IMG/VR virus record: IMGVR_UViG_3300027749_000047
Coordinates: 1 to 64,000 of that record
Source: a virus
Direction: 5' to 3' (one strand)
Length of the DNA: 64,000 bases
This document shows, one piece after another, positions 28,452 through 44,587 of this stretch. Within the stretch, counting starts at the first letter, position 1; each line of letters starts with the position of its first letter. Under the pieces are notes generated by a model. The model was not told the origin of the DNA. It was given only the letters and a program-made list of their open reading frames with translations, and did not search any database. The position numbers and the translations under genes are program-made.

Positions 28452-29137
28452 TATGCTGCTTCGTAAGTTCCACTAAAAATAATTACGTCAGCAGCAGTTT
28501 TTGTGTAAGTAGTGCTATTTAAACCTATTCTTGCTAAATATGTACCACTAGCCAAAATAAGTTGAGGCTGAAATGTTGTTGTGCTCACTGGTGCAATGGC
28601 TAAAACAGTTACAGAAGAAACGCCGGTTAAGTTACCTCTTCCAGTGCCAATCCAGTTACTATCTAAAGAAGTGACTGGCAAACTTAGCGTAAGATTACCG
28701 CTACCTACTGTTGCTGTTGTAAAAGTCCAACTACCTTTAAAAAATACTGTTTTTCCAATTTGAATCCATCGGGCTAGTGGAACAGTTGCGCCTGTAGACC
28801 ATCCTGTGCCAGTTACGGCTGGGTTGTAGTCATTCCAGGCTGCGTGATCTGCAGCTATTGTTGTACCAGAAATGCCACCTATAGTTGAGGCGCTATCTAG
28901 CGTTGCGGTTGCTGCGGTTGCTGTTAAGTTCGCAACGTTAATGGTTGCAGTACCATCGTTATAATCTGCTAAGTTACTTATTTCTAGCGGTGAAGCAACC
29001 CATTTATTGTCTAAATAAACCAATGCATCGTTTAAGTTTGGGTTTCCAACACTAACATTTGAAATGTCGTTTAGTTCATGAACATGACCACTACCTGATG
29101 AAGAGGATGTGACTTTTCCTTTATTTACTAAATCCAT
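28451..29137 (-). CDS. Receptor-binding/fibre-like protein
   Basis: HVHELNDISNV anchor-like start; C-terminal ARWIQIGKTVFFKG...LTLSLPV beta-rich head. Confidence 0.65.
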   Translation of the reverse strand: MDLVNKGKVTSSSSGSGHVHELNDISNVSVGNPNLNDALVYLDNKWVASPLEISNLADYNDGTATINVANLTATAATATLDSASTIGGISGTTIAADHAAWNDYNPAVTGTGWSTGATVPLARWIQIGKTVFFKGSWTFTTATVGSGNLTLSLPVTSLDSNWIGTGRGNLTGVSSVTVLAIAPVSTTTFQPQLILASGTYLARIGLNSTTYTKTAADVIIFSGTYEAA

Positions 29138-41834: not shown

Positions 41835-42053
41835 GGCTGAGTACGTAGTGTTCAGAAAGCGGATTAAATAACATTCACAATAACACTCCTTAAAGGTGTT
41901 GAAGTGAAAGAAGCAAAAGCAGAAAATCCGAGAACTTACCAGAGCATAGCTGTTAAAGCGAAGCGCCACTACGGTACGGAAGCCTATACATATAGTGATT
42001 AACACTGTAAAAACTAGGTGAGAATTAACCCTTGCAAACGCAGGGGTTTTTTC
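41835..42053 (+). ncRNA. Putative ~220-nt structured RNA ending in an intrinsic terminator
   Basis: Nested helices GGCT..GTAC-GTAGTG/CACTAC-GTAC..AGCC, CGGATT/AATCCG, TTCAC/GTGAA, AACAC/GTGTT; hairpin TATAGTG/CACTGTA; terminator AACCCTTGC-AAAC-GCAGGGGTT-T5. Confidence 0.55.
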
Positions 42054-42094
42054 TTTTGATACACTTATCACATAACTACTATCAAGGAGAAGCT

Positions 42095-42511
42095 ATGGCT
42101 TTATCACGAATTACCGGTTTTCAAGCATATGCACATATGCATCAATGGATGCTGCAACACAAAAAAGGTTTTCTAGGCCATTGCCATAAAACATGTCAAG
42201 ACGCTTGGGGATTACCAGTTAAATATGCTTCAGCTATTGATGCTTGGAATCATGTGCCAAAGAAACATCAACACACTGATCTGTCTAAGATTCCAGTGGG
42301 TTCGCCAATCTTTATGGATGGTGGCCAATATGGTCACGTATGCCTCCAGTCAGACAAAAAAGGCATTGTTATATCTACAGATGCTCCAACAGCTGATTAC
42401 ATTGGTGAAGTGCCATTGGAATGGTTTACCAAGCATTGGGGTAAAAAAGTTCTTGGCTGGGCATCTCAATACAATGACGTTGATTTGCAATTAGACAAAA
42501 TGCCTGTTTAA
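42095..42511 (+). CDS. Endolysin, CHAP/NlpC-P60-like peptidase, catalytic domain only
   Basis: GHCHKTCQDAWG...SAIDAW...PVGSPIFM.GGQYGHV...WGKKVLGW; ATG 42095 after AAGGAG. Confidence 0.78.
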   Translation: MALSRITGFQAYAHMHQWMLQHKKGFLGHCHKTCQDAWGLPVKYASAIDAWNHVPKKHQHTDLSKIPVGSPIFMDGGQYGHVCLQSDKKGIVISTDAPTADYIGEVPLEWFTKHWGKKVLGWASQYNDVDLQLDKMPV

Positions 42512-42519
42512 ACTAGGCA

Positions 42520-42602
42520 GGGGCAGGAAGGTTTCGACTAGACATTAAGACCACACGTTGGTAGTGTCTAGGACCAGAGTTCAATTCTCTGCTGCTCCAC
42601 AC
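42520..42602 (+). ncRNA. Mini-tmRNA: tRNA-like domain only, no mRNA-like domain
   Basis: 5' GGGGCAG-GAAGGTTTCGAC; helix CTAGACATT/AGTGTCTAG; GAC linker; T-arm CAGAG-TTCAATT-CTCTG; 3' CTGCTCC-A with G3:U70; CCA not fully encoded. Confidence 0.85.
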
Positions 42603-42621: not shown

Positions 42622-42951
42622 ATGGAATATGAAGACCCTGTATTAACTAGATTCTATTCATTTACTAAAAAAGATTTAGAAACTGGTTGTTTAATTTGGC
42701 AAGGTGGAATAAAAGGCAAAGGCTATGGTGCTTTTAAGTTTGAAAAAGTATCTCACCGTGCACATAGATTCATTTATGAATATGTAAAAAACAATAATGA
42801 GCGTTTACCACGAGAAACAATTATTAGACACACATGTGACACCCCATTATGCGTTGACTTAAATCATTTATTACCAGGAACACATAAAGAAAACTATCAA
42901 GACTCTGTTGACCGTGGTAGAAGAATATTTAAGAAAAAAGATATTGCATGA
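42622..42951 (+). CDS. HNH endonuclease (HNH_3/homing type)
   Basis: GCLIWQG...GYG.F...AHRF.YE...IRHTCDTPLCVDLNHLLPGTHKENYQD. Confidence 0.9.
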   Translation: MEYEDPVLTRFYSFTKKDLETGCLIWQGGIKGKGYGAFKFEKVSHRAHRFIYEYVKNNNERLPRETIIRHTCDTPLCVDLNHLLPGTHKENYQDSVDRGRRIFKKKDIA

Positions 42952-43085
42952 GTACATCAGATATCATTACCGGAATGTTATTGGCCTTTTTAGGTGGGTC
43001 AATGTTTTTGTTAACGCTCATGATGATGTTTATGATATGGGATGATTATCAAGATAACAAGAAAAGACGTAACAGCAAAAAATGA
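42948..43085 (+). CDS. 45-aa single-TM protein (not in ORF track)
   Basis: MSTSDIITGMLLAFLGGSMFLLTLMMMFMIWDDYQDNKKRRNSKK; ATGA overlaps at both ends. Confidence 0.6.
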   Translation: MSTSDIITGMLLAFLGGSMFLLTLMMMFMIWDDYQDNKKRRNSKK

Positions 43086-44587
43086 CCGAAGCACCTATCT
43101 TTAGCCTTGTCAGGCCACCAACTAATAAAGAAGAACTATGGTGGACTGTCAAGACTCTATGGGGTGTTGAATTACCTAGAGTACAGGTATGTCCAGATCA
43201 CACGGCTCCTTTTGATGCATTTGCGGAGGCTTATTTTGGTAACGAGTTTAACTGGGTTCTTTGGTATGGTTCGCGTGGTACTGGCAAAAGCTATATGCTT
43301 GCTCTTTTGGCCCTTACTAAAGCTGCTCTTCTTGAAATAAATGTGACACTATTGGGTGGGTCTATGGCTCAGTCACAAAACATTCACGAGCATGTTGAGT
43401 TTTTGACACAACACAAGCATGCACCTGTTCATGCAATTGAATCTATGATTAAAACACAGATTACTTTTACTGGCGGTAATTGGATTAGACCACTACCTGC
43501 ATCACAAAAGACTGTTCGTGGACCTCACCCTCAAATGACATTACTTGATGAGATTGATGAAATGGAACGCAAGATTTATGATGCTGCTATGGGTCAGGCT
43601 ATGACTAAACCCAATGCTAGAGGTGTTGAAGTTGCTGAAATGGTTGTTGCTTCGTCTACATGGCAAAATCCTGTTGGTACTTTTCAGTCTGTTATGGATG
43701 AGGCTTTGGCTAAAGGTATGCCTGTTCGTACATGGTGTTATCGTGAGCAGTTAAAGCCTCATGGGTGGATGGATCCTGATTTTATTGAGCGTAAGCGTAT
43801 GTCTGTTCCGGCTGAGATGTTTCGTGTTGAGTATGAGCTTGGTGAGCCTGCTGGTGGTTCACGTGCGTTTGATTTAGAGAAACTTAATAAGGCTTTTGTT
43901 GATTTAGAGATTGTTGATGAGCGTCATTCGGCTAATGATGATGAGTGGGTATTCGAACGACCTGTACCTACTGCTACTTATTCTGCTGGTGCCGATTGGG
44001 CTAAAGAGCAGGATAAGACTGTTATTGCTGTGTTTAGGCTTGATGAAAGTATTAGACGGCTTGTTTATTATCGTAGGTTTAATCGTACTGATTGGCCAAC
44101 AATGATTGGCGTGTTTAATCGAGTAACTACCGAGTATCAAGCTATGGCGGCGCATGATGCTACAGGTATTGGCAATGTTGTTCATGACATGGTTGATGAG
44201 CGAGTTATTAAATTTACTATGTCTTCTAATAAACGTACAGAGATGTTGACTAATTACATTACGGCTGTTGAGCAAGGTCGCTATAAGTTGCCTCGTAATA
44301 CTCCTGCGTACCTACAGCATAAGTCAACTACGGTTGAGGAAGTCTTTGGTGGTGGCGGTTGGAACTCTCATCTGTCTGATGATGTGTGTGCTTTTGCTTT
44401 GGCTCATCATGCTGCAGAGCGTATGGCTCCGCCGGCAGCTGGTGAGGGCGTTAAGAAGACAGAGTATGCTCCTGAAAAGTTTAAAGACATTACTCCTGTG
44501 TATGAGGATGATGGTCGTTATGTTACGCAAGTGGGTGCTGTTACTGTTAAAGATGATAGCGGTGTTGGAGTTTTTAATCTTTTCTAA
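43082..44587 (+). CDS. terL: Terminase large subunit
   Basis: GSRGTGKS Walker A, TLLDEIDE Walker B, GADWAKEQD and SDDVCA nuclease motifs. Confidence 0.93.
   Translation: MTEAPIFSLVRPPTNKEELWWTVKTLWGVELPRVQVCPDHTAPFDAFAEAYFGNEFNWVLWYGSRGTGKSYMLALLALTKAALLEINVTLLGGSMAQSQNIHEHVEFLTQHKHAPVHAIESMIKTQITFTGGNWIRPLPASQKTVRGPHPQMTLLDEIDEMERKIYDAAMGQAMTKPNARGVEVAEMVVASSTWQNPVGTFQSVMDEALAKGMPVRTWCYREQLKPHGWMDPDFIERKRMSVPAEMFRVEYELGEPAGGSRAFDLEKLNKAFVDLEIVDERHSANDDEWVFERPVPTATYSAGADWAKEQDKTVIAVFRLDESIRRLVYYRRFNRTDWPTMIGVFNRVTTEYQAMAAHDATGIGNVVHDMVDERVIKFTMSSNKRTEMLTNYITAVEQGRYKLPRNTPAYLQHKSTTVEEVFGGGGWNSHLSDDVCAFALAHHAAERMAPPAAGEGVKKTEYAPEKFKDITPVYEDDGRYVTQVGAVTVKDDSGVGVFNLF

Follow-up and report, generated by a model that had tools for sequence, protein, structure and literature searches.

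In the general model of trans-translation, the alanine-charged tRNA-like domain (TLD) of tmRNA, together with SmpB, takes the nascent chain in the A site of the ribosome (PMC3929946). Natural tmRNAs reduced to this domain receive only a few sentences in the literature that we found. Hudson, Lau and Williams (2014, PMC4131195) include 'Mycobacterium phage DS6A (TLD only)' in a list and propose that such an RNA titrates SmpB, with reference to Mao et al. 2009. According to PMC4131195 and PMC11915505, Mao et al. saw strong inhibition of tmRNA in E. coli by a similar TLD-only molecule; PMC4131195 adds that the inhibition did not depend on chargeability. A 2025 database paper (PMC11915505) repeats the DS6A entry and adds CDS-less plastid and mitochondrial forms, which co-occur with SmpB and are thought to aid incomplete mRNAs without tagging (PMC11915505, PMC4131195). 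Our literature search, which was incomplete, turned up no account of TLD-only tmRNAs as a broad family in phages.

We analysed a 64,000-nucleotide stretch of phage DNA (the window), in which a mini-tmRNA lies upstream of the terminase gene. The features of the locus are as follows:

42032..42511, plus strand: upstream ORF, separated from the RNA gene by 8 nt
42520..42599, plus strand: mini-tmRNA (TLD-only tmRNA) gene, running from acceptor position 1 to discriminator A73
42520..42526, plus strand: 5′ strand of the acceptor stem, GGGGCAG, with the G3 of G3:U70; its partner is 42592-42598
42527..42537, plus strand: stemless D-loop substitute of tmRNA type, GAAGGTTTCGA, which aligns with the tmRNA consensus GGaUUCGAC
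42538..42571, plus strand: helix 2, made of the 9-bp P2a, an internal AAG and the 4-bp P2b hairpin, standing in place of PK1, the tag frame and PK2-4
42538-46/42563-71, plus strand: the two strands of P2a (9 bp)
42547-62, plus strand: 16-nt insert between the P2a strands, containing the ACCA/TGGT hairpin
42550-53/42559-62, plus strand: P2b hairpin ACCA/TGGT, loop CACGT
42572-74, plus strand: GAC linker
42575-91, plus strand: T arm, CAGAG / TTCAATT / CTCTG
42592..42602, plus strand: 3′ strand of the acceptor stem, CTGCTCC, then discriminator A (42599) and CAC; CCA is not encoded
42622..42951, plus strand: HNH endonuclease gene, starting 19 nt past 42602
43082..44587, plus strand: terminase large subunit gene (phrog_2, E 4e-17), which opens the packaging and head module

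The element is 80 nt long to the discriminator, and direct reading of its sequence, including the linker and T arm, bears out the parts named in the original prediction: the 7-bp acceptor stem GGGGCAG/CTGCTCC with G3:U70 and discriminator A, the D-loop substitute, the 9-bp helix, the 16-nt insert with its small hairpin, and the T arm. Since CCA is absent from the DNA, trimming and CCA addition would be needed. The Rfam tmRNA model RF00023 matches the element with 57.3 bits (gathering score 47, E 7.8e-20), the alignment running over model positions 1-374 with 292 central positions skipped. tmRNA is the sole Rfam family above threshold in the window and, within its clan, matches the element better than tRNA does. 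It had been expected that both Rfam and ARAGORN would recover the two ends of an ssrA gene around a large central deletion; this held for Rfam, but ARAGORN called neither a tRNA nor a tmRNA in the element. The predicted fold has a minimum free energy of -29.8 kcal/mol (z -3.3), none of 200 shuffles folded as well, and 0.00 chance occurrences of the core motif are expected in the window. Our own covariance model, R1, built from the window clade and environmental members with DS6A left out, gives the element 85.3 bits.

The comparison with one-piece SsrA is simple to state: the tRNA-like domain, helix 2 and alanine identity elements of SsrA match the window element end to end, whereas the mRNA-like domain of SsrA (PK1, resume codon, tag frame with its stop codon, and PK2-PK4) has no counterpart in it. 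As the 292 skipped model positions are absent, neither a tag nor a stop codon can be templated. An ordinary tRNA-Ala was rejected on the ARAGORN and clan results and because the element does not form a cloverleaf with D stem and anticodon arm. The lack of an anticodon arm likewise leaves unsupported the earlier idea of a decoy against tRNA-targeting defences. A permuted two-piece tmRNA was also rejected, the ends of the element standing in normal order in the RF00023 alignment.

The window belongs to G000, a virus record of IMG/VR in which genes for terminase, HNH, DnaB and primase are present. It is 135,953 bp long and rated 100% complete, and it is a head-to-tail fusion of the genomes of two related phages, each about 68 kb in length (1-68175 and 68176-135953, junction 68175/68176), the window being positions 1-64000. 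The halves are syntenic, with about 73-88% nucleotide identity in aligned blocks, and the opening 100 nt recur at 68176; gene counts and apparent 'paralogues' in this record are therefore doubled. The second genome carries an orthologous element at 109671-109753 (61.4 bits). The two copies are identical at 78 of 83 positions (94%), and the flanking blocks at 81% and 84%; among the differences are an A-U to G-C change that affects the small hairpin and, within the long helix, a change of G-C to G-U. Independent Logan contigs from two other runs, belonging to other studies, span the element free of insertions and deletions, which disposes of an assembly collapse of a full-length ssrA, and related IMG/VR contigs from other metagenomes also have the short form. 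The phage occurs in sequencing runs of freshwater and lake metagenomes, and no RNA run is among them.

To follow the element among relatives, 59 loci were fetched, each encoding a relative of the adjacent terminase. The element is present only where the terminase is at least 81% identical (L003, L005, L007, L008, L009 and L023), and more distant relatives among these loci have neither the element nor a full-length tmRNA near the terminase. In L006, whose terminase is 82% identical, the element is absent and a tRNA-Trp occupies its slot, which indicates that the element is dispensable and its distribution patchy. Where it does occur, its structure is kept. In an alignment of 11 close relatives, the 25 drawn pairs are paired in 275 of 275 cells, compared with 36-55% in controls in which the partners were slid, and compensatory changes occur at five pairs; the closing pair of the apical hairpin is found as GC, AU, CG and UA. 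The original prediction had held that all stems pair and that the element looks maintained rather than decayed, and had proposed a search of related phages for covariation; on each of these points the relatives agree with it.

We then looked for the family at large. A first motif, which comprised only the D-loop, GGAC linker and T-loop and left the acceptor features outside the pattern, found at least 117 stretches in IMG/VR. Among the 122 first-motif matches listed, 120 have a perfect 7-bp acceptor and 121 have a GGG start with G3:U70; A73 followed by C is found in all 122, and CCA is encoded in only 28. A motif with a relaxed D-loop added at least 51 further matches with perfect acceptors, and the D-loop variants of other family members include GGGTTCGAC, GGCATCGAC, GGTATCGAC and GGATTCGAC. 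Together, the two scans give at least 140 distinct elements with a perfect acceptor stem, 73-95 nt long (mode 79), and the middle segment is a single stem-loop, often CAYG-capped, in 139 of the 140 elements listed. When 100 matches (99 distinct sequences) were aligned with R1, 97.6% of cells were paired (41-52% in slid controls), the covariation score was 0.81 (about 0.1 in slid controls) and compensatory changes were found at 14 of 19 pairs. The T stem is 99.8% paired across the family, with compensatory changes at four of its five pairs. G1-C72, G2-C71 and G3:U70 show no variation in the 99 sequences, while at acceptor pairs 4-7 both sides have changed in 5-43 of them; these three pairs and A73 are also essentially invariant among the elements listed from the full set of at least 140.

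Across 185,579 species genomes of bacteria and archaea, the same motif gave only 11 strong model matches, mostly in MAGs, from Actinomycetota, Bacillota, Bacteroidota and Saccharibacteria. Five representatives of the weak bacterial matches, which come from a Bacteroidota MAG, Microvirga (Alphaproteobacteria) and cyanobacteria, were checked and rejected as mini-tmRNAs, ARAGORN calling a tmRNA at each: four permuted and one ordinary one-piece. True permuted tmRNA genes, labelled tmRNA* by ARAGORN, reach only about 31-37 bits with R1. Judged by these searches, the mini-tmRNA class is strongly enriched in viruses. The Rfam match, the covariation in both close and distant relatives, and the invariant alanine identity elements support the reading of the window element as a complete alanine tRNA-like domain of tmRNA that lacks the pseudoknots and tag frame and is kept by selection, not decayed. 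It is a genuine conserved TLD-only tmRNA gene and a further member of a known, under-described class.

Of the known members of this class, DS6A is the closest. R1, from which DS6A had been left out, finds its TLD-only tmRNA (tmID 11587, 'Phage__Mycobacterium.9') at 28478-28557 of JN698994 with 57.5 bits (E 5e-13), whereas an ordinary tRNA-Ala scores 28.9 bits. The DS6A element (our locus L179) lies between gp33 and gp34 and is unannotated in both GenBank and RefSeq. It has the same architecture and length as the window element: a 7-bp acceptor with G3:U70, a stemless D-loop, P2a, an A-rich internal loop, a short capped P2b with the apical AAAACCGCACGCGG hairpin, a GGAC-type linker and a T arm, with no tag frame. 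Both elements are phage-borne, and neither phage has its own SmpB. The two differ in their D-loops (GGTGGTCGAC in DS6A, GGTTTCGAC in the window), in GC content (about 70% in DS6A, an actinophage of M. tuberculosis, versus 50% in the freshwater phage of the window), and in that DS6A is temperate and has an integrase, whereas the window phage has no tyrosine integrase. In addition, the DS6A copy falls below the Rfam gathering score and the window copy above it. BLAST with the DS6A element returned only DS6A records and one 28-nt T-arm match.

By their description, the organellar CDS-less tmRNAs (mitochondria of jakobids and oomycetes, plastids of Mallomonadaceae) are likewise reduced to roughly the tRNA-like domain (PMC11915505, PMC4131195). 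However, these are vertically inherited and served by a dedicated imported SmpB, whereas the virus would exploit or compete for the SmpB of its host. The synthetic TLD-only constructs of Mao et al. 2009, as they are cited, comprise the same minimal domain and inhibit endogenous tmRNA; they were engineered, whereas the window element is natural, is under purifying selection and retains the alanine identity set.

We propose that the element is a functional tag-less mini-tmRNA which would be charged with alanine by the host, bound by host SmpB and set in competition with host tmRNA, so that tagging is suppressed, an account to which we give about an even chance. Since the gap to the upstream ORF is 8 nt and that to the HNH start 19 nt, the mini-tmRNA is probably cut from a polycistronic transcript, and host tRNA-processing enzymes would perform this step, followed by CCA addition. 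Proximity to tRNA genes elsewhere in the family also suggests tRNA-like processing: a tRNA gene lies within 100 nt, always on the same strand, for 18 of 96 unique elements, often only 1-13 nt away. Host AlaRS would then charge the RNA through G3:U70 and A73, as their invariance suggests. SmpB, which would have to come from the host since the phage encodes none, would bind it along with EF-Tu, and the complex would compete with the host's tmRNA both for SmpB and for ribosomes that have stalled. A nascent chain transferred to it would gain at most one alanine and no degradation tag, and ssrA tagging would consequently be suppressed during infection. The phage may benefit either from the tag-less freeing of ribosomes or from a disabled host rescue.

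SmpB is absent from G000 and from 36 of 36 other mini-bearing phage records (of which 18 have a completeness of 90% or more). The downstream genes across 70 family loci are heterogeneous, and a fixed protein partner was rejected on this ground. The absence of a phage SmpB and of any fixed neighbouring protein gene supports a dependence of the RNA on host factors. Two of the 37 mini-bearing records encode a small ArfB-like RF-1 domain protein. The two proteins, with open frames of 123 and 114 aa, are found at G031:C1:27616-27801 and G033:C1:86715-86888 (the records of L282 and L291) in phages of 115-120 kb. Such a protein could act on ribosomes whose A site is empty, hydrolysing the peptidyl-RNA there.

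Three points weigh against the proposed account. The inhibition in E. coli that is cited in PMC4131195 as independent of chargeability implies that entry into the ribosome is not needed for inhibition; with no stop codon, the release of the peptidyl-mini-tmRNA is unexplained; and the distribution is patchy, the element being dispensable. The first point bears directly on the alternative that the RNA is purely a sponge, titrating the SmpB of the host, and perhaps partners of RNase R, away from the ribosome, with charging and ribosome entry irrelevant. A titration function would not be new, since it matches the hypothesis published in 2014 (PMC4131195), and it is in keeping both with the E. coli inhibition as cited there and with the absence of SmpB from the phages. 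However, it does not account for the invariance of G1-C72, G2-C71, G3:U70 and A73 in about 100-140 divergent sequences whose neighbouring acceptor pairs covary, and a sponge would tolerate G3:C70. Because the neighbours vary and the stem would only gain strength from a U-to-C change, the constancy of G3:U70 is the chief reason to think that charging matters; read from the alignment, the fixed first three pairs beside variable pairs 4-7 are the signature of selection on charging. This points to an action on the ribosome and not to mere titration, and we consider pure titration unlikely.

A stronger form of the proposed account is that natural mini-tmRNAs need their alanine charge and that phages run a tag-less trans-translation on the ribosome. 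We advance this only tentatively, as something possible and on balance doubtful. Such a takeover of stalled ribosomes might serve, for example, when host or phage nucleases leave many broken mRNAs, or it might counter abortive-infection systems that cleave mRNA. If true, the messenger half of tmRNA would be dispensable for a useful rescue step, and these phages would offer a natural system in which this can be tested. The testable question raised is whether phages do no more than block ribosome rescue in the host or operate a form of it that adds no tag. It rests on the family of at least 140 members, its enrichment in viruses, its residence in tRNA arrays, the lack of a phage SmpB and the invariant alanine set.

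The position of the element between closely spaced genes raises a different possibility, namely that it is a tRNA-like processing signal at which RNase P and 3′-end cuts set the 5′ end and stability of the downstream mRNA, the excised RNA itself having no role. The short distances to the ORFs on either side fit this, as do the promoter and terminator scans around the element, which found nothing above shuffle expectation, and the identity of the downstream gene, which across the 70 family loci is the major capsid protein in 14-17 cases and a DnaB-like helicase in nine. Against it, a processing signal leaves unexplained why the stemless D-loop, GGAC linker and helix 2 of tmRNA have been kept along with the alanine identity set, and many copies lie within tRNA arrays with no adjoining ORF, some of these arrays holding 11-26 tRNAs. 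We find such a role rather improbable.

The genes flanking the window element had been described as an endolysin upstream and an HNH gene downstream. The first assignment is unsupported, as the ORF has no Pfam match and only a weak match to phrog_12298, 'membrane associated protein' (E 1.4e-5); the second is sound, with matches to PHROG HNH endonuclease families at E 5e-23. A terminator-like hairpin with a T-run at 42027-42048 overlaps the listed TTG start of the upstream ORF, whose true start is therefore probably further downstream. An HNH gene stands between the RNA and the terminase in both genomes of G000, the two proteins being only 44% identical. Among close relatives, the contents of this hypervariable slot (42622-42951 in the window, 1607-2077 in L001, 3887-3958 in L006, 100-173 in L008, 3896-3969 in L009 and 3890-3963 in L023) are divergent HNH endonucleases, tRNA-Trp, tRNA-Asn or nothing. 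A tRNA-Trp or tRNA-Asn lies between the RNA and the terminase in L008, L009 and L023, the last of which also has an unannotated ORF there, and only about 150 nt with no tRNA separate the two in L003 and L007. Since the content of the slot varies in this way, and HNH is the downstream gene in only one or two of the 70 family loci, the HNH association is incidental, the gene being a variable insert and no fixed partner of the RNA, and the pattern suggests that the junction is a site of repeated mobile-gene insertion.

It is very improbable that the element is half of a split tmRNA whose tag template is a separate phage RNA. Permuted two-piece tmRNAs do occur in bacteria and marine phages (PMC9004378), but both ends of the element are non-permuted, a permissive Rfam scan of the 64-kb window found no other tmRNA-like piece, and no tag frame with an ALAA-like ending is conserved between the two genomes of G000; the last two are weak negatives. 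An inert remnant, be it an attP-type fragment, a decaying host ssrA copy left by imprecise excision or an assembly collapse, is exceedingly improbable and largely refuted: integration often targets tmRNA genes, and prophages can contain fragments of ssrA (PMC9004378, PMC11915505), but both ends of the element are present and covary, G000 has no tyrosine integrase (the recombinase family that was searched) and only four of the 37 mini-bearing records have one, the element is better conserved between the two phages than its flanks, other runs bridge it without an indel, and in two assemblies with both a mini-tmRNA and a full-length ssrA, whose bin membership is uncertain, the acceptor and T stems of the two differ. 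The presence of both halves and the lack of a tyrosine integrase led us to reject an attP or ssrA integration fragment in particular. From the differing stems in these two assemblies, with the same uncertainty of bin membership, it also follows that the minis were not recently copied from the gene of the local host, and host mimicry or recent capture was rejected.

ARAGORN called no copy correctly over 60 other family loci, and its tmRNA call overlapping L139 was rejected as spurious, having a non-GGGG 5′ end and an atypical tag. Searches of the region and of the 83-nt element by blastn and tblastn gave no match in cultured phages, BLAST being ill-suited to this RNA. Such elements should be labelled 'TLD-only tmRNA' in annotation instead of being left as intergenic gaps.

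Several minor features of the family were also observed. Nearly every member has C directly after the discriminator, with the full CCA encoded in about a quarter, and C likewise follows the discriminator in two full-length bacterial tmRNA genes without an encoded CCA. A long extension of helix 2 brings the total length to 92-95 nt in L280, L283, L284, L295 and L305, and the element of L154 (5845-5939) contains an AT-rich insert of 50 nt. The viral contig L115 carries two mini-tmRNA copies on the same strand about 1.3 kb apart, at 5-81 (45.5 bits) and 1317-1392 (58.6 bits).
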